Source: an uncultured Acidimicrobiaceae bacterium (GTDB lineage Bacteria; Actinomycetota; Acidimicrobiia; Acidimicrobiales; CAIXPF01). From it: a stretch of DNA of 64,000 nucleotides. Below the pieces are notes generated by a model. The model saw nothing but the letters and a program-made list of their open reading frames with translations. It made no database searches and had not been told where the DNA came from. Position numbers and translations under genes: made by a program. Shown here in pieces: positions 1,027 through 50,238 of the stretch. Positions within the stretch are counted from its first letter, which is position 1; each line of letters opens with the position of its first letter. The stretch spans positions 15,099 through 79,098 of the forward strand of contig CAYVOK010000009.1 in assembly GCA_964453335.1 (NCBI GenBank). The letters run 5' to 3'.

Positions 1027-2911
<1,885 letters not shown>

Positions 2912-2927
<16 letters not shown>

Positions 2928-4060
2928 GACGCCTCCTCCGCTGCTCGGCGGTACAGGGCGACGAGCCCGTCCGCACACCGCTCCCACGAGAACGTCGCCG
3001 CCCGTCGCCGCCCACGGGCGACGAGGTCGGCTCGACGATCGGCGTCGTCGCACACCTGCGCCAACGCGTCGGCGAGGGCGTCGACGTCGCCCACGGGCAC
3101 GATCGCCGCCGCGTCGCCGACGACCTCGGGCAACGACCCGGCGTCGGTGCACACCACGGGGACCCCGGCAGCCATGGCCTCGAGCGGCACGAACCCGAAC
3201 CCCTCGTACCGCGACGGGTAGGCGACCGCCGTCGCGCCGGCGAGGAGGTCGGCGCGTGCGCGGTCGTCGACCCAGCCGAGCCGGTGGACCCGGTCCCGGT
3301 TCGGCGAGGCGGCGATCGCCCGGTCGAGCGCGTCGGCCCCCCATCCGTCGGGCCCGGCGATCACGAGCCGGAGGTCGTCGAGGTCGGGTGCGATCCGGTC
3401 GAACGCCGCCACGAGGCCCGGCAGGTCCTTGCGCGGTTCGACCGTGCCCACGGCGAGCACGTAGCGACCCTCCGCACGACCGTCCCCGAGGGCGCGGCGT
3501 CGGCCGGCGGCGGGGTCGCCGGCGAGCTGCGGGGCGAGGCCGAGCAGCACCGGGACCACACGGTCGTCGGGCACACCGAGCCAGGACCGCACCTCCTCGG
3601 CGACGAACGTCGAGTCGGTGTGCACGAGGGCCCCACGGTCGACCGCCCGCCGCACCAGCTCCGGGTACTGCAACGTGTCCCGGTTCGCGAGCTCGGGGAA
3701 CCGGACCGGGGTGAGATCGTGCACGGTGACGACCCGACCCGCACGACCGGCGGGCGGGACCACGTAGTTGGTGCCGTGCACGGTGTCCACGGGACCCGTC
3801 CACCACTGCACCGGGGGTGCGTCGACGCGGCGCCACGCCTCCCGCAGGGGTCGGGCCGCCATCGGACGGTCGACCGCCCGGACGCCGACGGGGAGGCGGT
3901 CGGCGAGATCGTGCCGACCGCGCCACGACGCGGCGTAGGCGACCGGCCGCACGTCGTCGCGCTCGCCGAGTGCGGCGAGCAGATGGCGGGCGAAGGTGCC
4001 GATGCCCGTCGGATTTCCGAGGAGCGGCGTCGCGTCGAGCGCGACGCGGAGGGGGGTCAG
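2912..4060 (-). CDS. GT4-family glycosyltransferase (5' end uncertain)
   Basis: 'RVALDATPLLGNPTGIGTF' N-terminus, 'RKDLPGLVAAF' and 'YPSRYEGFGFVPLEAMAAGVPVV' (E-x7-E) are GT4/GT-B motifs. The stop overlaps the rmd start by 16 nt. The track extension up to ATG 4243 has poor GC3. The only in-frame candidate just before the conserved N-terminus is CTG at 4060, so the start is unresolved. Confidence 0.8.
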
Positions 4061-4257
4061 CGCACCCCGCCGCGCACGAGGTGGACGAGACCGCGCTCGA
4101 CGAGCGCACCCACACGGCGGCTCACCTCGGCCGCCGGGCCGAGCCCCGACCGTTCGAGCTCGGCCTCGACGGAGCGCCGGTACGACAACGCCTGCTGCAG
4201 TCCGAGGACCGTGAGTCCGAGGGTCGTCCTCGCTGCGCGACATGCCTGGTCAGCCAC
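4057..4257 (-). CDS. small hypothetical protein, winged-helix-like (66 aa)
   Basis: GTG-started ORF whose frame carries the high GC3 between 4060 and 4257, unlike the GT4 frame there. 'ELERSGLGPAAEVSRRVGALVERGLVHLV' looks like an HTH recognition helix plus wing. Its stop TGA overlaps the putative GT4 start (CTGA). Confidence 0.4.
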   Translation of the reverse strand: MADQACRAARTTLGLTVLGLQQALSYRRSVEAELERSGLGPAAEVSRRVGALVERGLVHLVRGGVR

Positions 4258-4325
4258 ACCGTGAGGCTATCGCCGCCACCGATCGTGACCGACCTCGCCG
4301 ACGGCCCGCTAGCCTCTCCTGCGCC

Positions 4326-7300
4326 GTGACACCCCTCGACGCCGACCTCGGCGGCCTCGGGACGACCGCCGTGGAAGCGACGGTCGACGACGAGGCCGAG
4401 GACGACGAGCAGCCCGACGGGGCGGCTCCATCCGTCGTCGCGCTCGTGGTCGCCCACGACCCCGGTCCGTACTTCGAGGAATTGCTCGTCTCGCTCGCCG
4501 CGCAGGACTACCCGAACCTCGCGGTCCTCGTCGTCGACAACGGCAGCGCCGAGGATCCGACCGAACGGATCGCGACCGTCCTGCCCGGTGCGTTCGTGCG
4601 CCGGCTCGACGGCGCCGTCGGATTCGGCGCCGCCGCGAACGTCGGTGCCCGCATGGTGGAGGGCGCCTCGTTCCTCCTGCTCTGTCATGACGACGTCGCC
4701 CTCGCGCCGAACGCCGTCCGGGTCCTCGTCGAGGAGGCGTTCCGGTCGAACGCCGGAGTCGTCGCCCCGAAGCTCGTCTCGTGGCACCGGCCCGAACTCC
4801 TCGTCGCCGTCGGCATGGGAGCCGACCGGTTCGGTGCGCCGTCGCCGTTGTGCGAGCGCGGCGAACTCGACCAGGAACAGCACGACGCCGTGCGCGACGT
4901 CTTCTACGCACCCGACGCCTGCATGCTCGTCCGCGCCGACCTGTTCTCCGCCGTCGGCGGGTTCGACGAGGAGATCACCTTCCACGGTGGCGACACCGAC
5001 CTGTGCTGGCGGGTGCACCTCGCCGGTGCGCGCGTCATCGCGGCGCCCGGTGCCACCGTCCGCCACGTCGAGGCGATGGGCGGACGTCGGCCCGACGACC
5101 GCCGCCGACTGCAGCAGCGGCACCGCCTGCGCATGGTCCTCACCGACTACCGCTGGTTCCACACCATCGGCATCGGGCTCCAACAGGCGCTGCTCAGCGT
5201 CGCCGAGATCGTCATGGTGCTCGCCCGCGGACGGGTCCGTCACGCCGCCGACGTGGTCGCCGCGTGGGCATGGAACCTGCGCCGACCCGGTTCGCTGCGC
5301 GCCAAACGACGCGTCGTCCGCGGCGCCCGCAACGTGACCGACCTCGAGGTGCGCCGCCTGCAGGCACGGGGATCGGCCCGGGTCACCGCGTATCTGCGGG
5401 GCCAGCTCCGGGCCGCCGACATCGAAGGGGACACGATCACCGAGGCCGGCCTCGAGTGGGCGTCGGAGGTGCGTCGGACGGTCAGCTGGCCGAGCATCGT
5501 GACCGTGACGCTCGTCGGCGCACTGTTCCTGCTCGGCAGCCGGGGGCTGATCGGCGGCCGGGTCCCCGTCGTCGGCGAGTTCGCACCGCTGCCCGACGGT
5601 CCCGTCGAACTGTTCCGGACGTGGTGGTCCGCCTGGCGCGAGGTCGGCGTCGGGTTCGCCGGCGGGGCCCCGATCGGCTTCCTGCTGTTCGCCGTCTCCT
5701 CCGTCGCAGCGTTCGGCTCCACCGGCGTGGTCCGCACCGTCGCCGTGCTCGGTCTCCTGCCCGTCGGCTGGTGGGGGGTTTGGCGGGTTGCGACCCTCGG
5801 CACCCACACCCGCGGCAGGATCGCCGCGCTGCTCGCGTACGCCGTGAACCCGTTGCCCTACGCGGCGCTGGCGTCGGGGAGTTGGCGCGGACTCACCGCC
5901 TACGCCGTGTCCCCGTGGATCCTGTACCGGGTCACGAACCTCGGCGGGATCGTCCCCGTCGATCGTCGCCGCTTCGCCGGCCAGGTCGCCGCGCTCGGCC
6001 TCACCGTCGCCGTTGCCATGGTGCTCCTACCGGCCACCCCGGTGCTCGTCGTCGCGATCGTGGTCGCGCTCGTGCTCGCCGGGATCCTCGGTGGCAGCAT
6101 CGCCGGGCTCGGTCGGCCGTGCGCCGGGACGATCGTCGCCCTTGCCGTCGCGTTCGGGCTGCACGCCAGCTCGCTCGCCACCTCGCTGACGCTCGCCCCC
6201 TTCACCGACCCCGACTTCCTGCCTGCGGGGCGGGCCGGCGGGGCGCAGGCGGTCTCCCTCGCCGACCTGGTGCGGTTCGACCCCGACGGTGGCAACGGCG
6301 GTCGGGTCGTACTCGGCCTCCTCGTCGCCGCGCTGCTCGGCCCGGCGATCGGCCGGGCGTGGCGTTGGGGCTGGGCGCTGCGCGGCTGGCTCCTCGTCAC
6401 CGTCCCGCTCGCCGCGGTCGCCGTCGTGCAGGCCGCCGGCCTCGACGTCGATCTCCCGCCGGCCACGGTCGTGCTCGCACCCGTCGCCCTCGGCGTCGCC
6501 GTCGCCGTCGCCACCGGTGTCGCCGGGTTCGACCTCGACCTTCCCGGCTACCGGTTCGGCTGGCGTCAGGGTGCGAGTGTGCTCGCCGCGGCGGGTCTCG
6601 CCCTTGCGACGCTGCCGATGGCCGGACGGGTGCTCGACGGCCGCTGGGGCCTTCCCTCGACCGGGTTCGAGGGCACCCTCACGTTCCTCGACCGGGATGC
6701 GACTGCGGACCGCTCTCGGGTGCTGTGGCTCGGCGTGCCCGAGGTGCTGCCGGTCGCCGGGTGGTCGATCGAACCGGGGCTCGCGTACGGCACCTCGATC
6801 GGGTTCCCCTCGACCGGTGCACTCTGGGCGGGTCCGACGTCGGCCGGTACCGAGGCGATCGCCGACGAACTCCGCGCCGCGCGGGCGGGTGACACCACCC
6901 GGCTCGGTCGGGCCCTGTCGCTCTACGGCATCCGCTACGTGATCGTCGTCGAACGCATCGCCCCCGCACCCTTCGCGGACGAGGTCGTCGAACCGGCCCC
7001 CTGGCTCAGCAAGGCGCTCGGCGACCAGCTCGACCTGCAACAGGTGGAGGCGAACGGGGCGGTCCGGCTGTACCGGAACGTCGCCTGGCGACCGGTCGTC
7101 ACGACGGTCCCGGTGGCCTCCGACGACGCCGCCGACCTGCCGTCGACCGTCGATCTCTCGGGTGCGCCCACGGGCGTCTCCGGTCTCGGGGCCACCGGTG
7201 CGACGCGCTACGAGGGGACGGTCGAGGCCGGCGTCCTGCACCTCGCCGAATCCGGGGACGTCGGCTGGGTGCTCGACGTCGACGGTCGCGACCTCCCCGC

Positions 7301-7523
7301 GACCCGCAGCTTCGGCTGGGGTACCCGGTTCCGGGTGGAGTCCGGTGGCGCGGCGACCCTCGAGTACCGCACCCCGGTGCTCTACCGGGTCCGCCAGGCG
7401 GCGCAGGCGGCCGCGTGGGTGCTCGTCGGGTTCGTCGCCTGGCGGGCGACGCGCCCACCCCGCCCCGAGGACGAACCGACGGAGGACGCCGCGGCGACCG
7501 ACCCGGTGGAGGTGACCCCGTGA
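4326..7523 (+). CDS. GT2 glycosyltransferase fused to a large polytopic membrane domain and a C-terminal extracytoplasmic domain
   Basis: N-terminal GT-A domain: 'VVALVVAHDPGPYFEELLVSLAAQDYPN', 'VVDNGSAED', 'LCHDDVAL', 'GGFDEEITFHGGDTDLCWR'. More than 10 hydrophobic helices follow, then a beta-rich tail and a final TM helix. GTG 4326 is preferred over ATG 4242, which would overlap the divergent small ORF. Confidence 0.85.
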   Translation: MTPLDADLGGLGTTAVEATVDDEAEDDEQPDGAAPSVVALVVAHDPGPYFEELLVSLAAQDYPNLAVLVVDNGSAEDPTERIATVLPGAFVRRLDGAVGFGAAANVGARMVEGASFLLLCHDDVALAPNAVRVLVEEAFRSNAGVVAPKLVSWHRPELLVAVGMGADRFGAPSPLCERGELDQEQHDAVRDVFYAPDACMLVRADLFSAVGGFDEEITFHGGDTDLCWRVHLAGARVIAAPGATVRHVEAMGGRRPDDRRRLQQRHRLRMVLTDYRWFHTIGIGLQQALLSVAEIVMVLARGRVRHAADVVAAWAWNLRRPGSLRAKRRVVRGARNVTDLEVRRLQARGSARVTAYLRGQLRAADIEGDTITEAGLEWASEVRRTVSWPSIVTVTLVGALFLLGSRGLIGGRVPVVGEFAPLPDGPVELFRTWWSAWREVGVGFAGGAPIGFLLFAVSSVAAFGSTGVVRTVAVLGLLPVGWWGVWRVATLGTHTRGRIAALLAYAVNPLPYAALASGSWRGLTAYAVSPWILYRVTNLGGIVPVDRRRFAGQVAALGLTVAVAMVLLPATPVLVVAIVVALVLAGILGGSIAGLGRPCAGTIVALAVAFGLHASSLATSLTLAPFTDPDFLPAGRAGGAQAVSLADLVRFDPDGGNGGRVVLGLLVAALLGPAIGRAWRWGWALRGWLLVTVPLAAVAVVQAAGLDVDLPPATVVLAPVALGVAVAVATGVAGFDLDLPGYRFGWRQGASVLAAAGLALATLPMAGRVLDGRWGLPSTGFEGTLTFLDRDATADRSRVLWLGVPEVLPVAGWSIEPGLAYGTSIGFPSTGALWAGPTSAGTEAIADELRAARAGDTTRLGRALSLYGIRYVIVVERIAPAPFADEVVEPAPWLSKALGDQLDLQQVEANGAVRLYRNVAWRPVVTTVPVASDDAADLPSTVDLSGAPTGVSGLGATGATRYEGTVEAGVLHLAESGDVGWVLDVDGRDLPATRSFGWGTRFRVESGGAATLEYRTPVLYRVRQAAQAAAWVLVGFVAWRATRPPRPEDEPTEDAAATDPVEVTP

Positions 7524-9229
7524 GGCCCCGTCGGTTCCTCGTCGCGTTGCTCGTCGTCGCCGTCGCCGCTGCGGCGGTGCTCGTCGACGCCGCTCCACCC
7601 CGGCGCCCTGCCGACGTCGCCGTCGTCCCTGCGTCGGCGCTCGCCCCCGTCGCCACCGCCGACGACGCCGCGAGCTCGACCTGGTACTGCGTCGCAGGCA
7701 CGGCGTCGAAGGGTGGCGCAGCCGACCACACGGTCGTCGTCGCCAACCCGACGGAACGGACCGCCGAGGGGCGCATGGAGATCTTCCCCGTCGGCGGCGA
7801 CCCGGTCACGGTGCCGTTGCAGGTCGCCGCGGGGTCGCGCGAGTCGATCGCCGTCGGCACGAAGGTCGAGGCCCCCTTCGCCGCAGCGGTCGTCGAGATC
7901 GCTGCCGGTGGTGTGGTCGCCGAGCACGAGGTGCGGGGCAGCGCCGGCTGGGACAGCGGGCGCTGTGCGTCCGCCGCGTCGACACAGTGGTACTTCGCCT
8001 GGGGCCGCACGGCCGGCGCCGCGAACCTCTCGTTCGCCCTGCTCAACCCCTTCCCCGAGGACGCGGTCGTCGACCTGACCTTCGAGACCGAGGAGGGGTT
8101 CGTCGCCCCGACCGCGCTCGAGGGGCTCCTCGTCCCGGCCCGGCGCCTCGTCGTGGTCGACGTCACCGAACAGGTGAGCGTGCGCACCCGCGTGGCCACC
8201 ACGGTGTCGACCCGCGCCGGACGCATCGTGGCCGAACGGATCCAGACGATCGTCGGTGCCGACGGTGTGTCCGCCGTCGACCTCGGTCTCGGCGCCCCTG
8301 CACCGGCGACGGTGTGGAACTTCGCCGAAGGGCGCGCCGACGCGGCGACGGGGGAGCAGTTCTCCGTGTTCAATCCCACCGAGGAACCGGCCGAGGTGGA
8401 GATCGTCGTCGAACGGTCGGGTGCGGGCACCGGCGGTGCACCGGCACCGTTCGAGGTGCGCGTCCCCGCCGGTGGTGCGGCCCAGGTCGTGCTCAACCAG
8501 GAGTCGCGGATCGCCCTGCCGATCCGGCACACGACGACGGCCCGGTCGGTGAACGGCGTCCCCGTCGTCGTGGAACGCATCACGGCCACCGGTTCGATCG
8601 CGAAGGCACTCTTCGGCGACCTCGGGACCGACACCACGATCACGACGTCGACGACCACGTCGACCACCACGTCGACCACCACGGCGCCGACGACCACGAC
8701 GACCGCGCCCGCACCGGGGGCGACGACCGTGCCACCGGCGTCGACGACCACGACCACCACGACCACCACGGTGCCGACGACCACGACGGCGCCCGGTACC
8801 ACGACGACGACCCCGGGCTCGACCACGACACCGGGCGGGCTCGTCGCACTGCCGACTGGGTTCTCGGCGACGCTCGGGTTGCCGGTCGTCGCTGGTCGCT
8901 GGGTGCTCGCGACCGGCGCCCGTGACGGTCTCGTCGACGCGTCGGTCTCCGTGCTGAACGTCACGACGAGCGAACTCGCCCTCACCGTCACCACGTTCGA
9001 CCGGGGCCGTGCCTCGTCGCTCAGCGCACCGGCGCGCATCGGGCCCGGGCGGCGCGTCGAGATCCCGCTCACTCTCCCGAAGGGGACGACCGGGTACCTC
9101 GTCGTGGTCGAGGCGTCCGGCGCCGTCGTCGTCGACCGCCTGCAGCCGTCGCGGACGCCCGCCGAGCTCGCCGTCGAGCCCGCGATCCCCACGCCGGGTG
9201 GCGGTACGCCGCCGGCGGTCGCGTCCTGA
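7520..9229 (+). CDS. exported DUF5719-like protein with Thr-rich linker
   Basis: GTG 7520 overlaps the upstream TGA (GTGA). N-terminal signal/anchor 'RRFLVALLVVAVAAAAVLV'. Two similar beta-rich halves ('STWYCVAG...', 'ATVWNFAEG...'). My recollection is that this family sits next to the giant GT2 gene in actinobacteria. Confidence 0.7.
   Translation: MRPRRFLVALLVVAVAAAAVLVDAAPPRRPADVAVVPASALAPVATADDAASSTWYCVAGTASKGGAADHTVVVANPTERTAEGRMEIFPVGGDPVTVPLQVAAGSRESIAVGTKVEAPFAAAVVEIAAGGVVAEHEVRGSAGWDSGRCASAASTQWYFAWGRTAGAANLSFALLNPFPEDAVVDLTFETEEGFVAPTALEGLLVPARRLVVVDVTEQVSVRTRVATTVSTRAGRIVAERIQTIVGADGVSAVDLGLGAPAPATVWNFAEGRADAATGEQFSVFNPTEEPAEVEIVVERSGAGTGGAPAPFEVRVPAGGAAQVVLNQESRIALPIRHTTTARSVNGVPVVVERITATGSIAKALFGDLGTDTTITTSTTTSTTTSTTTAPTTTTTAPAPGATTVPPASTTTTTTTTTVPTTTTAPGTTTTTPGSTTTPGGLVALPTGFSATLGLPVVAGRWVLATGARDGLVDASVSVLNVTTSELALTVTTFDRGRASSLSAPARIGPGRRVEIPLTLPKGTTGYLVVVEASGAVVVDRLQPSRTPAELAVEPAIPTPGGGTPPAVAS
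8630..8832 (+). repeat. coding low-complexity region (ACS-rich DNA; Thr/Pro/Ser linker of about 65 aa)
   Basis: Translates to 'TDTTITTSTTTSTTTSTTTAPTTTTTAPAPGATTVPPASTTTTTTTTTVPTTTTAPGTTTTTPGSTTTPGG'. The DNA is imperfect acg/acc triplet repeats. Confidence 0.9.
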
Positions 9230-41153: not shown

Positions 41154-42014
41154 ATGTCGGCGGATCGGACCGGCCCGGGTCCGTCCGTCCGAGGAGGCGT
41201 GGTGCAGGACGCGACACGGATCGCCGACTACGAGCTCGTCGGCGCGCTCGCCGAGGGCGGGCACGGTCGGTTCCATCTCGCCGTGCCGCCCGCGCGACTC
41301 GGTCTCGACGTCGAGCGGGTGGTCGTGAAGGTCGTCGCCGGTGGTGACGAGACGGCGTTCCGGCGCTTCACCCGGGAACTCAAGCTGTTCGCCCGGGTGA
41401 CGCACCCCAACCTCGTGCGCCTCTTCGACGCCGGTCAGCACGAGGACCGGTTCTTCTATTCGATGGAGTGGTGCCCGGCTGGCACGCTCGACGACCCGTC
41501 CGCGCTCGACGTTCCGGCGAGGATCCGCGCCGTCGCCGAGGTCGCGCGGGCGGCGCACGCCCTGCACGAGGCCGGCATCGTCCACCGCGACATCCGACCG
41601 GGGAACGTGCTGCTGCGGGCGGACGGGTCGGCGGTGCTCGCCGATCTCGGGCTCGCGCAACTCGGGTCGTCGTCGATGACGTCGATGGCGTCGATGTCCT
41701 CGATCGGGTACGTCGACCCGGAGCTGCTGCGCGGTGGTTCCGCAGGTCGTCCGACCGACGTCTACGCGCTCGCCACCACGTTGCACCGGGTGCTCACCGG
41801 CGAGGACGTCTTCGCCGGCCTCGACCCGTCGGACCCGATGCTCGCGATGCGGACCGTGCTGCGCCGGCCGCCGACGGTGCGACGGGACCTGCTCGACCAG
41901 CGGGTCGCGCAGATCATCGAGTCGTCTCTCGACCCCGTCGTCGAGGCGCGCCCACCCACCGCGGAGGCGCTCGCCGACCTCCTCGACGGATCGACCGGAG
42001 GAACCGGAGCATGA
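41154..42014 (+). CDS. minimal Ser/Thr protein kinase (catalytic domain only)
   Basis: 286 aa. G-loop 'GALAEGGHGRF', 'VVVKVV' Lys, 'HRDIRPGNVLL' (Arg where Hanks kinases normally have Lys), 'ADLGLA' (DLG for DFG) and 'GYVDPE'. No TM helix or sensor domain. Confidence 0.85.
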   Translation: MSADRTGPGPSVRGGVVQDATRIADYELVGALAEGGHGRFHLAVPPARLGLDVERVVVKVVAGGDETAFRRFTRELKLFARVTHPNLVRLFDAGQHEDRFFYSMEWCPAGTLDDPSALDVPARIRAVAEVARAAHALHEAGIVHRDIRPGNVLLRADGSAVLADLGLAQLGSSSMTSMASMSSIGYVDPELLRGGSAGRPTDVYALATTLHRVLTGEDVFAGLDPSDPMLAMRTVLRRPPTVRRDLLDQRVAQIIESSLDPVVEARPPTAEALADLLDGSTGGTGA

Positions 42015-43198
42015 CCACCCACGTCGTCGTCCCCCATCACGGTGCCGGTGCGGGCCGGCTCGTCCGCCAGGGCCGCACCGTGCTGTTCACGACCGGTGAC
42101 GGTCCCGCGACCGCCGCACTCGTCGGCTGGTGCCGCTTCGTCGGCGACCGCTCGGCCGCCGACGTCCTCGCCGATCTCGGCCGGGTCGTCGACGCCGGCC
42201 CGGCGGTCGGTCCGTTCGTGCTCGTCGTGCTCGACGACGACGGGGTCGAGATCGCCGCGTCCGGTGGGTTGCCGCTCGCGGTGCGGACCGCGGCCGGGGT
42301 CGAGGTCGTCGCAGGCGAGGGACTCCAGCGGCGGTCCGTGCCCGGTGTGGAGGGGCTGTGGCTCGTCCCCGACGGGTCGGTCGCCGACCCGCTGCTCGAG
42401 CTCGAACGCGGTGTGGTCGCCGCCTCCGGTTTCGAGGTGCGGATCAGCCGCCCGGCCGCAGCCGGGGCCTGGGCCCCGCCGCCCGCGGCCGAGGCCGCCC
42501 CCGCCCCGCAGGTCGTCTCGCTCCTGACCCCCGATGACGAGCTACCCCCGGCGGAGCCGCTCCCGGTTGCGGTCGCCCCGGCACCGACACCGGAGCCCGT
42601 ACCGGCCCCTGCGCCCGAACCGGCCCCGGAACCGGCGCCTGCGGCGGCGGTCCCCGACACGCCCGCCCCGCCCGCCCCGGGCGGCTCGATCGTCGAACCG
42701 ATGGAGCCCGCCGACGACGAGCACGTCCACGTGCAGGGGCTGCGGTGCTCCCGCGACCATTTCAACGACCCGCGGGTGCGGTACTGCGCCGTGTGCGGGA
42801 TCGCGATGCACCAGGCGAGCTTCATCCTCGTCGAGGAGATGCGCCCGCCGCTCGGCGTGCTCACCTTCAGCGACGGCTCGCACCGGTCCCTCGCCCGCAC
42901 GGTCGTCCTCGGTCGTGACCCGGTCGACGACCCGGCGGTCCTGCGGGGCGAGGCGACGGCGGTGCCGCTCGCGGACGTGACGAACACCCTGTCACGGGTG
43001 CACGCCGAGATCCGCCTCCTCGGGTGGGACGTCCTCATCGTGGACCGCGGGTCGACGAACGGCACCTACGTGTGGGACGAGGCCCGCCAGGCGTGGGACC
43101 GGCTCGTGCCCGAACAGCCCCGTGCCCTCGTGCCGGGGACGCACGTCGCGTTCGGGCGCCAGGCGGCGACGTTCGAGTCGCCGCTCCGTCAGCGCTGA
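42011..43198 (+). CDS. FHA-domain protein with zinc-ribbon and unknown N-terminal domain
   Basis: ATG 42011 overlaps the kinase stop (ATGA). It has a Pro/Ala-rich linker, 'CSRDHFNDPRVRYCAVCG' and a C-terminal FHA signature 'VLGRDP...VSRVHAEI...DRGSTNGTYV'. Confidence 0.88.
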   Translation: MTTHVVVPHHGAGAGRLVRQGRTVLFTTGDGPATAALVGWCRFVGDRSAADVLADLGRVVDAGPAVGPFVLVVLDDDGVEIAASGGLPLAVRTAAGVEVVAGEGLQRRSVPGVEGLWLVPDGSVADPLLELERGVVAASGFEVRISRPAAAGAWAPPPAAEAAPAPQVVSLLTPDDELPPAEPLPVAVAPAPTPEPVPAPAPEPAPEPAPAAAVPDTPAPPAPGGSIVEPMEPADDEHVHVQGLRCSRDHFNDPRVRYCAVCGIAMHQASFILVEEMRPPLGVLTFSDGSHRSLARTVVLGRDPVDDPAVLRGEATAVPLADVTNTLSRVHAEIRLLGWDVLIVDRGSTNGTYVWDEARQAWDRLVPEQPRALVPGTHVAFGRQAATFESPLRQR

Positions 43199-43218: not shown

Positions 43219-45330
43219 TCAGCGACTGCTCAACGGTTCGACCGTGTCGCCCGGTCGCCAGCGGTCGAGGCGTTCGGTGATCGCGACCCGGTCACGGGCC
43301 CCGGGGTGGACCTGCAGCACCGCAGTGCCGTCCTCCCGGCTCGCAGCAGCGACCACGAGGTCGGCCTGCGCGCCCGCCGGAGCAGCGACCACGCCGAGCG
43401 AGCGCAGCCCGCGCAGCAGGCGCCCGCCGCCGCCGTCGACACGGAGCGGTGCCGCACGGTGCAGCGCGAGACGGGCGGCGACCTCGAGTGCGGCGCGTTC
43501 GGCGTTCGTGCCCCCGCCCGGCGCGGCGATCACGCCGTCGACGGCGACGTCCCCGCCGACGACGACCACGTCGGTACCGGACCCGGTGACCGGTGCGACG
43601 AGATCGACGTCGGCGGGACCGCAGACGACGGCGTCGGGGGCGAGCCGGCCAGCCTCGCCGACGATGTCACCCGCACGGTCGGGGCTCACCCGGCTGATGA
43701 CCGTGCAGGAACCCCCGGCGTCCTCGACGCGCTGCCGCAACGCCTCGGTCTCCGCGAGCGCATCGGCGATGCCGGCCACACCGACGTCGGTCCCGACGAG
43801 GCGGACGAGGTGCACCTGCGCGTCACGGCGAGCGCCGCTGAAACCGATCGCCACATCGACGAGGGGGATCGCCGTCGCCGGATCGCCGACGACGACGAGC
43901 ACCCGATCGCCACCACCCGTGCGTTCCGACTCGGCGATGTCGCGCTGCAGCCAGCGGTCCGGGTAGACGAACTTGAGCAGCGGCCCCGACATCGCCGTCG
44001 TGACGATCGCCATGATGACGAGCATCGTGTACGTCTGGTCGTTGATCACCCCGGCGTCTCGACCGACCTGGAGGATCACGAGCTCGGCGAGACCGCGCGT
44101 GTTCATCATCGTGCCGACCGCATAGGACTGTCGGCGGGGGACGCCGGTGACCCGGGCGGCGAGCGCACCCCCGACGAACTTGCCGATGCACGCCACGGCG
44201 AGGATGGCGAGCGTCGGGGCGATGTCGCTGCGGCCGAGACCGCCGATGTCCACGCCCTGGCCCGCGACGACGAAGAACACGGGGAGCAGGAGCTGCACAC
44301 TCACCCCGTCGAGCCGGTCGGCGATCGCATGGAACAGGCCGTGTGCGTCGCGCCGAGGCACGATCGCGCCGAACAGGAACGCACCGATGAGCTCGTGCAC
44401 GCCGATCAGCGAGGTCGTCCAGGCCGATGCGAGCAGGCCGATGAGCAGGAGCGCCAGGTGCTCCGGGGCGAGCTTTCCCGACGCCCGGTACGACCGCACC
44501 ACGAAACGCTCGAGGAGTGGTCGCACGACGAGGACGAGCACGGCGACGAACGCGAGCAGTTCGGCGAGCATGACGAGCACGCTGCCTGCACCGCCGCCGC
44601 CGGCGAGCGCAGCAGCGAACGCGAGCAGGGTGAACGCGACGATGTCGTCGATCGCCGCGCAGGCGATGAGGAGGATCCCGAGCGGGATCCGGAACATGTC
44701 CCGTTCGGCGAGGATCCGGGCGAGGACGGCGAACGCGGTGCCGCACATCGACACACCGAGGAAGAACGAGAACGGGAACTTCTCGACGGTCCGCCCGACC
44801 GGCGGTGTGGTACCCGCCTCCTCGGCTGCGGCGATCTTGCGTTCGACCTCGGGTGACGTGCAGGCGAGCGCCGCACCTCCGCCGAGCTCCTCGGCCTTCG
44901 TGACGCTCACGGCCACGCAGCTGTGGTCGTCGTGCAGGTATGTGCCGAGCACGCCGATGCCGAGCAGGAACGGGAACGCGATCGAGGTGAGCGAGATCGC
45001 GAGCGCCCGCTTCCCGCTCTTGCGGACGACGTCGAGGTCGACCTCGAGGCCGACGATGAACATGAACAGCACCAGGCCGAGTTGGGCGACGAGCTTCAGG
45101 TACGGGCGGACGGACTCGGGGAAGAGCAGGTCGTCGAGATCACCGGGGAGCAGGCCGAGGAGGCTCGGGCCGAGCGCGATGCCGGCGATGATCTCGCCGA
45201 TCACCACGGGTTGGCCGATCTTCCGACAGAACGCCCCGACGACACGCCCGAGCGCGAGCACGATCACGAGACACAGGAGCAGGCGGACGAACGGGTCGGC
45301 TCCCGGTGCGCCGGCGGCGAGGATCGGCAT
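43219..45330 (-). CDS. CPA2 (Kef-type) cation:proton antiporter with C-terminal USP-like domains
   Basis: 'GQPVVIGEIIAGIALGPS', 'VLFMFIVGLEVD' and 'GAFLFGAIVPR'. A C-terminal region of about 270 aa contains two Rossmann-like USP repeats ('VLVVVGDP...', 'VVVVGGD...'). Confidence 0.88.
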   Translation of the reverse strand: MPILAAGAPGADPFVRLLLCLVIVLALGRVVGAFCRKIGQPVVIGEIIAGIALGPSLLGLLPGDLDDLLFPESVRPYLKLVAQLGLVLFMFIVGLEVDLDVVRKSGKRALAISLTSIAFPFLLGIGVLGTYLHDDHSCVAVSVTKAEELGGGAALACTSPEVERKIAAAEEAGTTPPVGRTVEKFPFSFFLGVSMCGTAFAVLARILAERDMFRIPLGILLIACAAIDDIVAFTLLAFAAALAGGGGAGSVLVMLAELLAFVAVLVLVVRPLLERFVVRSYRASGKLAPEHLALLLIGLLASAWTTSLIGVHELIGAFLFGAIVPRRDAHGLFHAIADRLDGVSVQLLLPVFFVVAGQGVDIGGLGRSDIAPTLAILAVACIGKFVGGALAARVTGVPRRQSYAVGTMMNTRGLAELVILQVGRDAGVINDQTYTMLVIMAIVTTAMSGPLLKFVYPDRWLQRDIAESERTGGGDRVLVVVGDPATAIPLVDVAIGFSGARRDAQVHLVRLVGTDVGVAGIADALAETEALRQRVEDAGGSCTVISRVSPDRAGDIVGEAGRLAPDAVVCGPADVDLVAPVTGSGTDVVVVGGDVAVDGVIAAPGGGTNAERAALEVAARLALHRAAPLRVDGGGGRLLRGLRSLGVVAAPAGAQADLVVAAASREDGTAVLQVHPGARDRVAITERLDRWRPGDTVEPLSSR

Positions 45331-45348: not shown

Positions 45349-47388
45349 TCAGCCCCGTGCGGCCTTCGCGGTCGCTTCGTAGACGAGGTTGAAGAAGTCA
45401 CCGGCGTCGACCTCGTCGGCGGTGCGGCCGAACACGACGACGGACTCGATCGAGATGTTGGCGCCCTGCACGGTCGCGGCGAAGAACTCGGTCGCGGTCA
45501 CCGTCACCCCGTCCGCCGAGTAGTCGACGGCGTAGGCGGCGGTCCCGGTCGGGTCGTCGCTCGGGAGCGGGGTGAGACGGAAGGTGAGCACCTGGCCGTT
45601 CGAGAGCACCGAGGGCTCGGGGCAGGAGGCCGCGAAGCCCGCCCATTCCGCGAACGCCGCCTCGGCGGTCTCGACGGAGCTGTAGCGGGTGAGGCTCACG
45701 AGCGCGCTGCGGTCCCCGCCGGTCGTTTCGAAACTCCGACTCGCGTGGCTCTCGGCGGGGATCAGGTCCTTCCCGCACCAGGCGGTGACGCGGTTCCCTG
45801 TTTCGACCTCGACGACGGTGGTGCCGAGCGCAGCGCCGATCTGGGCGGGTTCGAGCAGACGGGCACGAAGAGCAGTCGGGCTCAGCGGTCGCACGGTTCC
45901 GTTCGTGACCGCCTCCTCCGTTGTGGCGGTCGTCGCGCTCCCGTCGCCGGTGCCGGTGCTGCGCAGCAGGGCGAACGCCCCGAGGCCGGCTCCGGCCGCG
46001 ACGACGAGCAGGCCGAGCACGATCCGGCCGCCCCGGCGCCGTCGCGGCGGGGCGGCGGGGGTGGCGGCGCCGGGTGCCGCCGTAACCGCTGGTGCCGGTG
46101 GGGCTGCGGGTGGGGCTGCCGGTGGGGCTGCCGGTGGGGCTGCCGCTGGTGCCGGTGGTGCCGGTGGGGCTGCCGGTGCGACGGGGGTGGCGGGCTGCAC
46201 GAGCGTCGGCGGTGCGGGCGGGTCGATGTGGGTCGGGGTGTCGACCGGTGGCCGAGACGGTGTGGCGTCGGAGGACGGATCGGTCGCCCATCCGGCGAGC
46301 GCGACGGAGGAGTCCGCCCCCTCGGTGGCGCGCACGGCCCCCATCGCGGTCGAGGTCTTCGGATCGCCGCGACGGCTGATCGGGACCCCGGGGAACGCTG
46401 CCGACACGAGGCGCTCGACGAGCGGGGTGCGACTCGCTCCGCCGACGAGGGAGATCGCCTCGAGCTGATCGGCCCGGAGCCCGGCGTTCGTGATGCAGCG
46501 GTCGAGGAGGGCGATCGTCTCCTCGATGTAGGGGGAGATCAGGTCCTCGTAGGCGTCCTGGGTGACGCGCACGGTCCGCATCCCGTCGGGGAGGGCGACG
46601 AACGCGTCGGCGTAGGGGTGGGCGGACAGCATCTCCTTCGCCCGGCGCGCCTCCTTCCGGAGGTTCGCCGCCACCTGCATCCAGGTCCCGTCCGCGCCGA
46701 CCTGGATGGCGTCCCACACGTCGGCGGGGAGCTGCGCCCCGATGTGGTTGACGAGGATCTCGTCGAAGAGCTCGCCGCCGATCGTGTTGTCGCCACCTGG
46801 ACGGCCCACGACCCGGAACCCGGCACCGTCGGACGCGACGACCGCCGTGTCGAAGGTGCCGCCACCGAGGTCGTACACGGCGATGTGGTCGCCGTCGTCG
46901 ACACCGACCTCGCTCGCGAAGGTGAGTGCTGCAGCGACCGGTTCGGCGACGAGGGTGGCCGCACCGATCCCGGCGCGCTGTGCGGCGTCGAGGAGACGGT
47001 TGAGCCACGGTCGGTTCCATCCGGCCGGGTGGGTGAGCTTGACCGCGGTCGGCGCCCCTCCCATCTGGCGGACGGCTTCCTCGTACACGTGGGCGAGCTG
47101 TGCGCTGACGAGGTCGACGACCTGGTACGGACGCCCGTCGAGCACCACCGGCACCTGGTCGCCGAGGCGGCTCTTCGGCGCCCGCAACGTCGCCCCGGGG
47201 TTCGACGACGCGAGCTCGTCGGCGACCCGGCCGACGACGATGCGGTCCCCGTCGGCGAGCACGACCGACGGCACCCGTCGTTCCCCACCGATCTCGATGA
47301 CCTCGGGTTCACGGCCTTCGACGCGCGCGGCTGCGACCGTGTAGCTGGTGCCGAAGTCGATGGCGAGGATCCAGGGTCGCGTGGCCAC
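45349..47388 (-). CDS. Hsp70-fold (NBD-only) ATPase fused to Pro/Ala linker, TM helix and PknH_C-like extracytoplasmic domain
   Basis: GTG 47388 preferred; the track ORF extends to 47484. 'ILAIDFGTSYT', 'VYDLGGGTFDTAVV' and 'ISLVGGASRTPLV' are Hsp70/actin-fold phosphate and adenosine motifs. They are followed by (AAPP)n, 'RRRRGGRIVLGLLVVAAGAGLGAFALL' and a 2-Cys ectodomain of about 190 aa starting 'LRARLLEPAQIGAALG'. Confidence 0.8.
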   Translation of the reverse strand: MATRPWILAIDFGTSYTVAAARVEGREPEVIEIGGERRVPSVVLADGDRIVVGRVADELASSNPGATLRAPKSRLGDQVPVVLDGRPYQVVDLVSAQLAHVYEEAVRQMGGAPTAVKLTHPAGWNRPWLNRLLDAAQRAGIGAATLVAEPVAAALTFASEVGVDDGDHIAVYDLGGGTFDTAVVASDGAGFRVVGRPGGDNTIGGELFDEILVNHIGAQLPADVWDAIQVGADGTWMQVAANLRKEARRAKEMLSAHPYADAFVALPDGMRTVRVTQDAYEDLISPYIEETIALLDRCITNAGLRADQLEAISLVGGASRTPLVERLVSAAFPGVPISRRGDPKTSTAMGAVRATEGADSSVALAGWATDPSSDATPSRPPVDTPTHIDPPAPPTLVQPATPVAPAAPPAPPAPAAAPPAAPPAAPPAAPPAPAVTAAPGAATPAAPPRRRRGGRIVLGLLVVAAGAGLGAFALLRSTGTGDGSATTATTEEAVTNGTVRPLSPTALRARLLEPAQIGAALGTTVVEVETGNRVTAWCGKDLIPAESHASRSFETTGGDRSALVSLTRYSSVETAEAAFAEWAGFAASCPEPSVLSNGQVLTFRLTPLPSDDPTGTAAYAVDYSADGVTVTATEFFAATVQGANISIESVVVFGRTADEVDAGDFFNLVYEATAKAARG
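46097..46144 (-). repeat. 12-bp tandem repeat x4 (ggtggggctgcS), encoding (AAPP)n
   Basis: Four head-to-tail copies at 46097-46108, 46109-46120, 46121-46132 and 46133-46144, with degenerate copies on both sides. Confidence 0.9.
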
Positions 47389-47491
47389 CGCTGATGCCTT
47401 CCGGTCGGGTGCGGCCCAACGGTAGCCGTTGCCGTGTGCACGTTCGCACCGCGGTGCAGCAGCGGGGCGTGCGAGCGGCGACAATGGGGGC

Positions 47492-49390
47492 GTGGCGGAC
47501 GCAGGGCGGATCGGGCGGTACCGGGCGGAGAAGGCACTCGGTGCCGGGAGCTTCGCGACCGTGTGGCTCGCCTACGACGAACTGCTCGAGACACGGGTCG
47601 CGATCAAGGTCCTCGCGGACAACTGGGCGCGCAACGCCGGCGTGCGACAGCGCTTCATCGACGAGGCCCGCATCCTGCGGCGCATCGACCACGAGCACAT
47701 CGTGCGGGTCCACGAGATCAACGAGCTCGAGGACGGCCGGCCCTACATCGTCATGTCGTGGGCGGACCGTGGGACGCTCTACGACCGGATCGCCGCACGG
47801 ACGTCCGACGACCCGTACCCGGTCGCCGAGGCGATCGCTCTCGGCGTGGAGATCTGCGAGGCGTTGGCCGTCGTGCACGACTTCGGGGTCGTGCACCGGG
47901 ACATCAAACCGTCGAACATCCTGTTCCGGTCGGTGCGCACCCACGAGCGCATCGCCGCGCAGCGGGCCGGCCGGGACCGCGGTGACGAGGCGGTGATGAT
48001 CGCCGACTTCGGTCTCGCGAAGGATCTCGCTGCGGCGAGCGGGTTCACCCTCGCCGCCGGCACCCCGGCGTACATGGCACCCGAGCAGGCGGAGGCGTCC
48101 TCGGTGATCGATCGTCGGGTCGACGTGTTCGCGGTGACGGCCGTCGTCTACGAGTTGCTGTGCGGTCGGCCGGCGTTCAACTCCGACACGCTGTCGGGGG
48201 TCCGGCGGGGTCGGGTGAACCAGGGTGCAGCGCCGCCGTCGACGTTGCGGGCCGGACTCGACGCCCGGTTCGACCGGCTGATCGCGCAGGGCCTCGCCCA
48301 TCGTCCCGACGACCGGTTTCCCTCGGTCATCGCGCTCGCGGCAGCGCTCACCGAGCTCGCCGGGCCGCCCGCTGCGCCTGCGGCAGCGCCGCCTCCACCG
48401 CCTGCGGCGCCGGCGACGGTGGTCGGTTCGGTCGGTCCGACCGGCGCGCCCGTCGAACCCGTCGGTGCCGCCGGGCGCGTGCTCGACCTCGTCTCCGCGG
48501 TACGCGGTCGGGTCGTCGCACCGGAGGGCATCGACGCGCTCGCCACGGCCGAGGAACGGTTGCGCCGCGACGTGCACGTGGTCCTCGTCGGCGACACCGG
48601 GGCCCGTGCGACGGGCGGTTCGGTGCTCGGCGACGTGCTCGCGCAGCGGCCCGGGGTCACCGTGGCCCGGGTCGCATCCCCCGACGACCCGGCCGTCGCC
48701 GAGGCAGACGTCGCCGTGCTGCTGCTCGGTGCCGACGCACCGGCCCCTGCGGAGGTGACGAGCCACCTCGGCGCCGTCCTCCGCCGGGCGGTCGCCGGTC
48801 CGGTCGCCGTCGAGGTGCTCGTCGTCCCCGCCGGTGACGGTGACGCCGCCGCGGTTGCCGCCGACCTCGCCGGTCGGCCGTCGATCGGCGTCGGTGCCGG
48901 TGTCCCTGCGGTCCTCGACGACGACGCGATGGTCCGCATCGGTGCGACCGCCGCCGAACTCGCCGCACTGCGCGCCCCGCTGCTCCGGGCGTCCGCCGGG
49001 CTCGCATGGCTCGAGGTCGCCGCTGCGGGTGCGGGATCACCGGCCGATCGGGCGGCGATCCTCGAAGAGGTCGATCTCCTGCGGGGTGAACTGCCGGCGA
49101 TGAGCGAGCTCACGCTGCTCCGGGAACTCGCCGGTGGTCGGGCGAACCTTCCCCCGCCGCTGCGCGACCAGGTCCGTCGGCTGCTGCTCTTCGCCGTGCC
49201 GTCGAACCGGCTGGGGCTCCCCGACGACGCCGATCCCGGGGCGTTGCGGGCTGCGGTGACCGCGCTCGGTACCGAGTGGCGGGTGCTCGAGAACACCGGC
49301 CGCGTCCCCTTCACCGCACGCAAGGCGATGTTGGTCGCACAGCAGTCCCTCGACCGGATGCACGCCGAACTCGTGCCCGACGCCGGATGA
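47492..49390 (+). CDS. Ser/Thr protein kinase with C-terminal degenerate P-loop (GTPase-like) region
   Basis: GTG 47492. 'LGAGSFATVW', 'VAIKVL', 'HRDIKPSNILF', 'DFGLAK' and 'GTPAYMAPE'. About 15 extra residues lie between the catalytic loop and DFG. After a poly-Pro/Ala linker comes 'VHVVLVGDTGARATGGSVLGDVL', which looks like a Walker-A strand lacking the GK[ST]. No TM helix. Confidence 0.85.
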   Translation: MADAGRIGRYRAEKALGAGSFATVWLAYDELLETRVAIKVLADNWARNAGVRQRFIDEARILRRIDHEHIVRVHEINELEDGRPYIVMSWADRGTLYDRIAARTSDDPYPVAEAIALGVEICEALAVVHDFGVVHRDIKPSNILFRSVRTHERIAAQRAGRDRGDEAVMIADFGLAKDLAAASGFTLAAGTPAYMAPEQAEASSVIDRRVDVFAVTAVVYELLCGRPAFNSDTLSGVRRGRVNQGAAPPSTLRAGLDARFDRLIAQGLAHRPDDRFPSVIALAAALTELAGPPAAPAAAPPPPPAAPATVVGSVGPTGAPVEPVGAAGRVLDLVSAVRGRVVAPEGIDALATAEERLRRDVHVVLVGDTGARATGGSVLGDVLAQRPGVTVARVASPDDPAVAEADVAVLLLGADAPAPAEVTSHLGAVLRRAVAGPVAVEVLVVPAGDGDAAAVAADLAGRPSIGVGAGVPAVLDDDAMVRIGATAAELAALRAPLLRASAGLAWLEVAAAGAGSPADRAAILEEVDLLRGELPAMSELTLLRELAGGRANLPPPLRDQVRRLLLFAVPSNRLGLPDDADPGALRAAVTALGTEWRVLENTGRVPFTARKAMLVAQQSLDRMHAELVPDAG

Positions 49391-50238
49391 GCACGGACCT
49401 CCCCGTCTACCGGGGCATGGACGCGGCAACCGTCGAGTCGCAGTACCAGCCGAGCATGCACGTGCCGTCGCTCGCACCCTTCGTCGAGGCGTACGCGCAG
49501 CAGGGGGCGGCAGCGCGCGCCGCGGTGCCGTGCGAGCGGGTCGCCTACGGCGACCATCCTGACGAGTGGCTGTGGTACGCCCCGGCCGGGCCGGTGGCGC
49601 CGCTGTTCGTCTTCGTCCACGGCGGCTACTGGCGCCGCCTGTCGGGTGACGACGGTTGCTTCCTGTTCCCCGCGGCCCGGGCTGCCGGCTTCGCGTGCGC
49701 GTCGGTCAACTACTCGCTGTGCCCGCACGAACCGCTCGACGTCCTCGTGTCCCAGGTGCGGCGTGCCGTGCGCTTCCTGCTCGGTGGCGGGCTCGGCGGG
49801 CACGACCCGAGCCGGGTGCACGTTGCCGGCCACTCCGCCGGTGGGCACCTCGCGGCGATGACGATGCTCGAGGTGCCGGACGTGGCGGGGTGGGTCTACG
49901 TGTCCGGGGTGTTCGACCTCGAACCGATCCCGTTCACGACGATCAACGACGACGTGCGCCTCGACGCCGCGACGGCGCGCCGACTGTCGCCGCTCGCCGC
50001 GCCGACGCCGGACCGCGGCCCCGTGCCGGTGGTGGTCACCTGGGGTGCCCTCGAGACGGCGGAGTTCGCCAGGCAGTCGAGAAGCTGGGCGCGTCAGTGG
50101 ACGTCGGTGCCCTCGCACCGCCCCCCGACGGTCGTGGCTGCGGCCGGACGCAACCACTTCGACGTGCTGTTCGACCTGCTCGATCCTGCGACGGCACTCG
50201 GCGCGACAGTCGTCGCCCAGGTCGGTTCATCGGTCTGA
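49387..50238 (+). CDS. alpha/beta hydrolase (arylformamidase/esterase-like)
   Basis: ATG 49387 overlaps the kinase stop (ATGA). Oxyanion 'VFVHGGYW' and nucleophile elbow 'GHSAGGH'. Confidence 0.8.
   Translation: MSTDLPVYRGMDAATVESQYQPSMHVPSLAPFVEAYAQQGAAARAAVPCERVAYGDHPDEWLWYAPAGPVAPLFVFVHGGYWRRLSGDDGCFLFPAARAAGFACASVNYSLCPHEPLDVLVSQVRRAVRFLLGGGLGGHDPSRVHVAGHSAGGHLAAMTMLEVPDVAGWVYVSGVFDLEPIPFTTINDDVRLDAATARRLSPLAAPTPDRGPVPVVVTWGALETAEFARQSRSWARQWTSVPSHRPPTVVAAAGRNHFDVLFDLLDPATALGATVVAQVGSSV

Follow-up and report, generated by a model that had tools for sequence, protein, structure and literature searches.

Little is understood about bacterial dynamin-like proteins (DLPs), and for most of them, to our knowledge, no partner has been named. 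We analyzed a 64,000-nucleotide stretch of DNA from an uncultured Acidimicrobiaceae bacterium (assembly GCA_964453335.1, contig CAYVOK010000009.1, positions 15,099 to 79,098 of the forward strand; hereafter the window), which contains a gene for a soluble Ser/Thr kinase whose C-terminal half is related to one family of DLPs. The gene is a new architecture, in which a Hanks-type kinase carries a vestigial dynamin-like domain, here called the pseudo-dynamin, and is paired with a membrane sensor of the Hsp70 fold. In full-text literature searches on this topic, no account of a fusion between a kinase and a dynamin or pseudo-dynamin turned up. In what follows, DLP1 stands for a sparse actinobacterial dynamin-like family of soluble proteins of ~500 aa, and DLP2 for its partner, a membrane-anchored dynamin-family protein of ~630 aa with a hydrophobic hairpin.

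Like the bacterial DLPs IniA of Mycobacterium, BDLP of Nostoc and DLP1/2 of Campylobacter, and like mitofusin/Fzo1, the pseudo-dynamin, as judged through its long-form relatives, has an N-terminal helix, a G core and a helical bundle with C-terminal helices, and the intact DLP1/DLP2 gene pair resembles the pairing of other bacterial DLPs. Unlike the bacterial DLPs, the pseudo-dynamin is joined to a kinase, has neither a paddle nor a transmembrane (TM) segment and has lost the G1-G4 motifs, with the G4 and middle-trunk segments deleted. The protein shares a canonical catalytic domain with PknB and PknH, and the ectodomain of its partner (window 45352-45951) weakly resembles PknH_C (E 0.0014, below the cut-off). 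In contrast to PknB and PknH, the kinase lacks a TM segment and an ectodomain of its own, the sensor resides on a separate membrane protein with an Hsp70 fold, and a basic insert precedes the DFG motif. The ROCO proteins (LRRK2 and bacterial Roco) also combine a GTPase-derived domain and a kinase in one chain, as do two relatives of the window's protein in which the GTPase is intact (P0117 and P0143). However, the GTPase-derived domain of the window's protein is of the dynamin type, follows the kinase and is dead; no Roc or COR family was among the Pfam matches of the protein, and it is not classed with the ROCO proteins.

According to PMC12490416, the eukaryotic pseudo-GTPases AAGAB, CENP-M and the pG domains of p190RhoGAP kept the GTPase fold, lost the nucleotide motifs and are presumed to serve in protein contacts. 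The pseudo-dynamin is like them in these respects, whereas they derive from small Ras-like GTPases and the pseudo-dynamin is dynamin-derived, bacterial and kinase-fused. An assignment to the Eleos anti-phage system (LeoA/LeoBC) was not obtained, as the C-terminal domain had no match in PADLOC and the organism's own genome has no intact dynamin; the Eleos models were matched weakly, and by intact DLP1 and DLP2 of distant origin alone. Paired TRAFAC GTPases linked to HSP70, GrpE and kinases have been described in actinobacteria as DO-GTPase/GAP1-N2 systems, and some of the HSP70s in these systems lack the peptide-binding domain (PMC7159879). In that description (Kaur, Burroughs, Iyer, Aravind 2020, PMC7159879), the DO-GTPases are characterized by zinc ribbons at the N terminus and a conserved Walker B Glu, and GAP1 is their obligatory partner. 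The DLP1-GrpE-DLP2 and DLP-Hsp70 neighbourhoods reported below resemble these systems, but DLP1 (P0072) has no zinc-ribbon cysteines by inspection and in this respect appears to differ from the DO-GTPases as described. In the preprint on Streptomyces DynAB, Hsp70, GrpE and kinase are nowhere mentioned.

Descent of the C-terminal domain from the DLP1 dynamin family

Pfam and NCBIfam recognized solely a Hanks-type kinase in the 632-aa protein (residues ~8-293; Pfam Pkinase, PF00069, E 2e-41). For residues 320-632 there was no match in Pfam (to E 10), NCBIfam, PADLOC or the PDB sequences, and Dynamin_N did not match the protein even at E 10. When 5.8 billion clusters were searched with a word index, 15 close relatives were returned; among 1.84 billion representatives, scanned exhaustively with HMMER, there were 52, 17 of them at E <= 1e-10. 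All full-length relatives that were scanned against Pfam were kinase fusions.

The origin of the domain became apparent when 30 of the kinase-fused C-terminal sequences were aligned with 98 DLP1 sequences (Dynamin_N-positive proteins) using hhalign. Over the full length the match to DLP1 was 99.7% (E 2.6e-25) in local mode and 99.9% (E 1.6e-34) in global mode, and the alignment was collinear from the first helix, via the P-loop strand, through to the C terminus; the control against reversed DLP1 gave 0.3% (E 0.21). The helical region matched the DLP1 helical region at 99.7% (E 3.9e-25). Most relatives carry a longer form of the domain, 37-55% identical to the window's copy, and the alpha/beta core of these long forms matched the DLP1 G domain at 96.9% (E 1.5e-10), while the controls of core against the DLP1 helical region or against the reversed G domain gave 0.1% (E 0.4-0.56). 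BLASTP with the window's domain found the intact dynamin P0069 (E 7e-9 over 117 helical residues), and when the organism's own genome was searched with P0072, a DLP1, the best match was the window's C-terminal domain. These alignments show that the C-terminal half descends from the DLP1 dynamin family, with homology over both G domain and helical regions that places it in the dynamin superfamily. The initial annotation, made from the sequence without database searches, had described the domain as looking like a degenerate dynamin/Era-like G domain, and the profile comparison bears out the dynamin reading.

An alignment of 15 sequences was used for the AlphaFold2 (AF2) model of the domain in the window, which reached a pLDDT of 92 and a pTM of 0.89. 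The model starts with two helices, continues with an alpha/beta unit of four strands and ends in a helical bundle. When this model was compared to the PDB with Foldseek, nothing was found at E <= 1e-3. The best match had an E of 0.008, the top matches were generic receiver/flavodoxin (CheY) folds (E 0.008-0.08), and MFN2 and MeaB were found at E 0.02-0.03, with MFN2 being the best dynamin-family match (E 0.02, probability 0.21). Because the short form alone could not settle the fold, the long-form domain of the relative P0011 (L019:8976-10118) was modelled as well (pLDDT 91, pTM 0.90). This model gave 28 matches at E <= 1e-3, and among the matches listed (to E 0.013) all belonged to the dynamin superfamily except one small GTPase at rank 35. 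They comprised MFN2 (8e-7), mitofusin-1, MxA, IniA (5e-5), Fzo1, BDLP (9e-5), the Campylobacter DLP pair, EHD and Drp1, and the best structural matches to DLPs and mitofusins were 6jfl, 5go4, 6j72, 2j69 and 5oxf. The TM-scores were modest (0.26-0.39), which could reflect differing subdomain angles in query and targets. A dynamin-type fold was seen for the model of the long-form relative, whereas the window's short form had no match at the same threshold. A CheY-like pseudo-receiver identity of the alpha/beta part was also considered and was rejected in view of the collinear homology to DLP1.

The strings VHVVLVGDTGARATGGSVLGDVL, DVAVLLLGAD and VLVVPAGDGD, on which the initial annotation had relied, were all found in the C-terminal half. 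The strand-loop proposed to open the domain does occupy the P-loop position and aligns exactly to GxxxxGKS, but the domain starts ~40 residues ahead of the VHVV strand with two conserved helices (PVGAAGRVxDL...). The joint alignment with intact DLP1 shows that in VHVVLVGDTGARAT three positions of GxxxxGKS are replaced, namely the second Gly, the Lys and the Ser/Thr, in line with the predicted loss of the GK[ST] lysine, and the sequence at this position differs among close homologues (GDTGARAT, TSGFPESF and APTYDGHP). The switch I Thr and the DTPG of G3 are replaced in the kinase-fused members of the same alignment; the long forms of sister genera still read VVGxxDGTTSELAWALAGE and VIDAGPLL. 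Every kinase-fused member lacks a segment of ~50 aa with the [NT]KxD motif (G4) and a middle helical segment of ~70 aa. The window's short form has lost a further ~80 aa that most relatives have after the P-loop strand, and alpha1 and the beta2-beta3 hairpins are missing from it; because of this further loss it is not recognizable as a G domain by itself. The intact G1 (GxxxxGK[ST]), G2 Thr, G3 (DxxG) and G4 ([NT]KxD) of a dynamin are thus missing; DVAVLLLGAD and VLVVPAGDGD are core strands and no equivalents of G3 or G4.

Across 15 sequences, 29 columns of the domain are invariant, 25 in helices and four in the alpha/beta core. Conservation is centred on the N-terminal helix (PxGxxGRVxDL) and on the C-terminal WRVLENTGRVPFTAR motif, and the counterpart of the family signature (table below) in intact DLP1 is RWRxFxND...SP..R in the joint alignment. 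The kinase-fused copy keeps the N- and C-terminal helices of the neck bundle, which are its most conserved part. With its GTPase ancestry, the loss of the motifs, the 29 invariant columns and its conservation across genera, which speak for continued purifying selection, the domain qualifies as a pseudo-GTPase.

The kinase domain contains the Gly-rich loop (GAGSFA), VAIK (K39), the alphaC E58, HRDIKPSN (135-142), DFG (172-174) and APE, which is the full set expected of a Hanks-type Ser/Thr kinase (PF00069), and the catalytic residues are invariant across the 15 closest homologues (alignment A1). N142 and D172 are 30 residues apart compared to about 13 in canonical kinases, and there is therefore an insert of ~17 aa before DFG, where ~15 aa had been annotated. 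The insert is kept in close homologues, with R146, R149, H151, E152, R158 and G160 invariant (A1); its length differs in remoter homologues, and the active-GTPase fusions P0117 and P0143 have none. No TM segment was found in the protein, as the top 19-residue Kyte-Doolittle mean (1.7) falls in a buried kinase helix. With its catalytic residues intact the kinase looks active, and it is probably cytoplasmic; the initial annotation had likewise listed all catalytic motifs and called the protein soluble. In the organism's own assembly (132 contigs, completeness 100, contamination 5.13), only four Hanks kinases match this one at length.

The divergent Hsp70-like gene and the loci of intact DLP1 and DLP2

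The divergent neighbour, annotated from the sequence as carrying a sensor ectodomain, encodes an Hsp70-like protein with a TM segment at residues 456-474 (hydropathy mean 2.44) and an ectodomain. The pseudo-dynamin kinase gene is the divergent neighbour of the Hsp70-like gene in 10 of the 11 contexts (seven of eight family genomes and all three metagenome contigs), and in the eleventh, L018, the kinase match is weak and fragmentary. The spacer between the two genes is short elsewhere too, with 101 nt at L011, 85 nt at L019, 81 nt at L020 and 107 nt on the P0008 contig (about 80-110 nt wherever genes had been called). Of the 15 genomes in the family to which the window belongs, 10, with the window's own genome among them, yielded the pseudo-dynamin kinase, and the presence or absence of the two genes was concordant in 14 of the 15, with both in nine and neither in five. 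The fifteenth genome is 79% complete and ambiguous for the pair. One genus alone has five genomes with both genes and three with neither. The initial annotation had named such co-conservation as a test of its proposal; however, the genomes of the family are kin, and the concordance is therefore no statistical test. A single-sequence search of limited sensitivity across 400 genomes of the phylum, in which the best five candidates per genome were scored, yielded no further pseudo-dynamin kinases.

At L013 (G010:C7, about 2531-8094), the region upstream of the gene for the pseudo-dynamin kinase holds three Hsp70-like paralogues in tandem; they are 55-56% identical to the window's ATPase domain, and family genomes carry 2-5 paralogues. 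The ectodomains of the Hsp70-like proteins differ by lineage and match Septum_form (PF13845, 5e-11), a PQQ-type beta-propeller (1e-39) or, in the window, weakly PknH_C (outside the window, at L036:9550-11316 and L038:9088-11241). From these comparisons, the Hsp70-like architecture looks modular and receptor-like, with a constant ATPase domain and an exchangeable ectodomain.

At least 465 proteins belong to DLP1, the sister family in which the dynamin is intact, and it is related to IniA by sequence (E 1e-6). Its members P0069 and P0072, which are named 'dynamin family protein' at NCBI and come from an Acidimicrobiia bacterium, have intact GKST, DTPG and THVD motifs. The family is sparse, with DLP1 in 11 of 301 genomes of a phylum-wide sample. 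At the 12 DLP1 loci of that sample, DLP2 was present at seven and an Hsp70-like gene within 1.5 kb at four. When the Hsp70-like ATPase was searched across the class, seven loci were found in two other families, and DLP1 and/or DLP2 adjoined all seven. At L037, a 502-aa open reading frame (ORF) upstream of the Hsp70-like gene is an intact DLP1. A search of the window's own genome for an intact dynamin found none, and no DLP2 either.

P0117 and P0143 are members of the DLP1 family in which a kinase is fused to an intact GTPase (GKST, DTPG and TKAD). At L043, such a fusion of a kinase and an intact GTPase is followed by a GrpE-like gene (L043:3205-3789, E 0.0034) and an Hsp70 gene. A small GrpE-like protein is also encoded directly after DLP1 at L044:8593-8994 (E 4.5e-7), and the gene order in Allokutzneria is DLP1, GrpE-like, DLP2. 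The GrpE-like genes behind DLP1 suggest that the Hsp70-like partner goes through a genuine nucleotide cycle, served by an exchange factor of its own. At L038:2708-7561, two kinases with C-terminal regions of NHL-repeat beta-propellers are encoded near an Hsp70-like gene with DLP1 and DLP2 beside it; in the kinase-domain tree both of these kinases cluster with the pseudo-dynamin kinases.

Features and neighbouring genes in the window

Coordinates of the features in the window (position 1 is its first letter)
Feature	Coordinates	Strand	Evidence
FHA protein gene in the island	42011-43198		
Na+/H+ exchanger-family gene, downstream of the Hsp70-like gene	43219..45330	-	Pfam Na_H_Exchanger 8e-56
Hsp70-like ATPase domain, Pro-rich linker, TM, ectodomain	45349..47388	-	Pfam HSP70 3e-38; hydropathy
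Common divergent promoter region, 103 nt	47389..47491	.	short spacer recurs in relatives
Whole gene, soluble Ser/Thr kinase with pseudo-dynamin domain, 632 aa	47492..49390	+	ORF, translation
Hanks-type kinase catalytic domain, residues ~9-293	47516..48370	+	Pfam Pkinase; NCBIfam PknB-type kinase region 8-293
Basic ~17-aa insert between catalytic loop and DFG, RSVRTHERIAAQRAGRDRGDEA	47927..47992	+	N142-D172 spacing
Pro/Ala-rich linker	48356..48448	+	read from the sequence; length and sequence differ among homologues
Pseudo-dynamin (vestigial DLP1) domain, 313 aa, residues 320-632	48449..49387	+	hhalign, BLASTP, AF2 model
Beta1 and degenerate P-loop, VHVVLVGDTGARAT	48572..48613	+	column-for-column alignment with RVAVAGRVxAGKST of intact DLP1
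Remnant alpha/beta G-domain core, four strands	48614..48898	+	model secondary structure; without switch I/beta2-beta3, G3, G4
Helical bundle (neck/BSE-like), best-conserved part	48899..49387	+	hhalign against DLP1 helical region; 16 of 29 invariant columns
Family signature WRVLENTGRVPFTARKA	49277..49327	+	invariant R278, L280, N282, T283, R285, P287, F288, R291
HSL/Abhydrolase_3-type hydrolase, 283 aa, ATGA-coupled, genus-specific neighbour	49387..50238	+	Pfam, NCBIfam, motifs

The kinase ORF starts with GTG at 47492. An alternative TTG start at 47429, giving 653 aa, is disfavoured, since the N-termini of 14 homologues align at 47492. Some uncertainty attaches to the start codon, as the cluster representative P0005, which is identical over residues 320-632, has 635 aa compared to 632 aa. 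The GC content of the window between 40 and 56 kb is 0.69-0.76.

At the 3′ end of the gene, the ATG of the hydrolase (49387) overlaps the TGA of the kinase (49388-49390) in the junction GGATGAGC. The hydrolase has the HGG (HGGYW) and GHSAG motifs and matches Abhydrolase_3 in Pfam (E 1e-12, 48.4 bits, over the cut-off) and HaHSL in NCBIfam (E 1e-42, 146 bits, under the cut-off of 320). The ATGA overlap with a GHSAG gene had been taken as a coupling of kinase and hydrolase, but the arrangement is confined to the genus. The hydrolase is found downstream of the kinase in the same-genus L011 only and is absent at L012-L018 and on the three metagenome contigs; elsewhere the downstream gene is, for example, that of inositol-1-phosphate synthase. 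Because no hydrolase occurs at loci outside the genus, it was ruled out as a component of the system and is regarded as a recent genus-level neighbour outside the module.

On the other side of the locus, the Na+/H+ exchanger gene begins 18 nt past the stop codon of the Hsp70-like gene, and an exchanger gene also comes after the Hsp70-like gene in L011, L012, L014, L015, L017 and L019. A gene for a protein of 72-109 aa consisting of FHA only lies directly downstream of the Hsp70-like gene at L019:5439-5657 and on the P0008 contig (5246-5575), and no small FHA-only gene is found at the matching position of the window, directly after the Hsp70-like gene. Window positions 41154-43198 hold the genes of a small kinase of 286 aa and an FHA protein. 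This pair recurs on the P0008 contig (279-aa kinase and 404-aa FHA protein) and at the same-genus L011:17521-18132, and the wider island around the Hsp70-like and kinase genes is therefore partly conserved.

Coupling of the kinase to the Hsp70-like protein

We favour, with moderate confidence, a model in which the kinase and its vestigial dynamin are docked on, or allosterically coupled to, the Hsp70-like sensor and pass an envelope signal on to phosphorylation. The dead dynamin is most likely the docking module to the Hsp70-like sensor. It would no longer act as a GTPase but would keep the face through which DLP1 cooperates with the Hsp70-like protein, and it would tether the kinase to the ATPase domain that this TM protein exposes to the cytoplasm. 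The kinase would take the place held by intact DLP1 in the ancestral system. A signal at the ectodomain would be turned into Ser/Thr phosphorylation, as in the split sensor-kinase arrangement first suggested for the locus, and the phosphorylation would probably be read by FHA-domain proteins of the same island. More tentatively, the ancestral dynamin-pair output of the Hsp70-fold receptor may have been swapped, in one lineage of the Acidimicrobiia, for a kinase that keeps a dead dynamin as its plug. The initial annotation had made its proposal depend on a P-loop fold in the C-terminal half and on co-conservation of the kinase and sensor genes. The genes are co-conserved, and the fold was found by way of the longer relatives, though not for the window's own remnant (Foldseek E >= 0.008); the proposal is supported to this extent.

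Several points weigh against the docking model. The short-form alpha/beta core alone was not significant against the DLP1 G domain (1.3%, E 0.039), and its assignment as a G domain is therefore by transitivity through the long forms; by itself the remnant in the window is undetectable as a G domain. As far as the sequence alone can tell, the C-terminal domain could bind nucleotide in a non-canonical way. The adjacency and the co-occurrence with the Hsp70-like gene come from related genomes, which are no independent samples. In the kinase-domain tree, the kinases of P0117 and P0143 fall outside the clade of pseudo-dynamin kinases (support 81/72, few outgroups), which is weakly, but not decisively, against a single origin of the fusions. 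One fusion followed by linear decay is therefore not demonstrated.

Helical regions of the dynamin family mediate oligomerization, and no part of the domain is better conserved than its helical bundle. The bundle might instead be a self-assembly module by which the kinase dimerizes or oligomerizes for trans-autophosphorylation, with the adjacency of the two genes reflecting merely common regulation. We hold this to be unlikely in view of the recurrent divergent adjacency and the joint presence or absence of the two genes, of the tie between the ancestral DLP1 itself and Hsp70-like genes, and of the deletion of the stalk-like middle segment in all fused forms. It is less probable still that the locus derives from a dynamin defence or membrane-repair system like Eleos/LeoABC and that the kinase serves in phage defence or in an envelope-damage response instead of in routine sensing of the environment. 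DLP2 (P0070) matched PADLOC LeoBC over nearly its full length (E 5e-11), DLP1 matched PADLOC LeoA in the P-loop region (E 4e-13), and the GTPase-centred conflict systems of actinobacteria have HSP70, GrpE and kinase themes (PMC7159879). However, PADLOC matched neither the C-terminal domain, the long form nor the Hsp70-like protein, and the kinase only as a generic kinase domain. The chromosomal context, with the Na+/H+ exchanger and FHA genes, is stable across genera and is no variable island, and no DLP2 is left in the organism's own genome.

Some pseudo-GTPases bind nucleotide, and the Rossmann-like four-strand core of the domain is kept and was modelled with high confidence. That the reduced G domain binds nucleotide non-canonically and switches the kinase, akin to the Roc-kinase coupling in ROCO proteins, nevertheless seems very improbable to us, since the Gly, Lys and Ser/Thr of the P-loop are replaced, as are DxxG and the Thr of switch I, the NKxD segment is deleted and the P-loop sequence varies even in close homologues. 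The least credible alternative is that the alpha/beta part is a flavodoxin- or receiver-like unit unrelated to GTPases, as the top Foldseek matches of the window's model might indicate, or that the hydrolase with its ATGA overlap is the true partner of the kinase, given that no receiver or flavodoxin match reached E 1e-3, that the homology to the DLP1 profile is collinear and includes the P-loop strand, and that the hydrolase is not a neighbour outside the genus.

The locus links one DLP family to Hsp70-like membrane proteins and presents a natural experiment, in which a GTPase went dead and became part of a kinase with its partnership preserved. It offers a hypothesis for what the helical neck of DLP1-type DLPs binds, adds a bacterial and dynamin-derived example to the pseudo-GTPases, and suggests a route by which soluble Hanks kinases without sensor domains receive signals from the envelope. 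If the kinase did take over from the dynamin pair as the output of the receptor, the mechanical output of membrane remodelling would have been rewired into phospho-signalling, and the locus would represent a previously undescribed design of transmembrane signalling.

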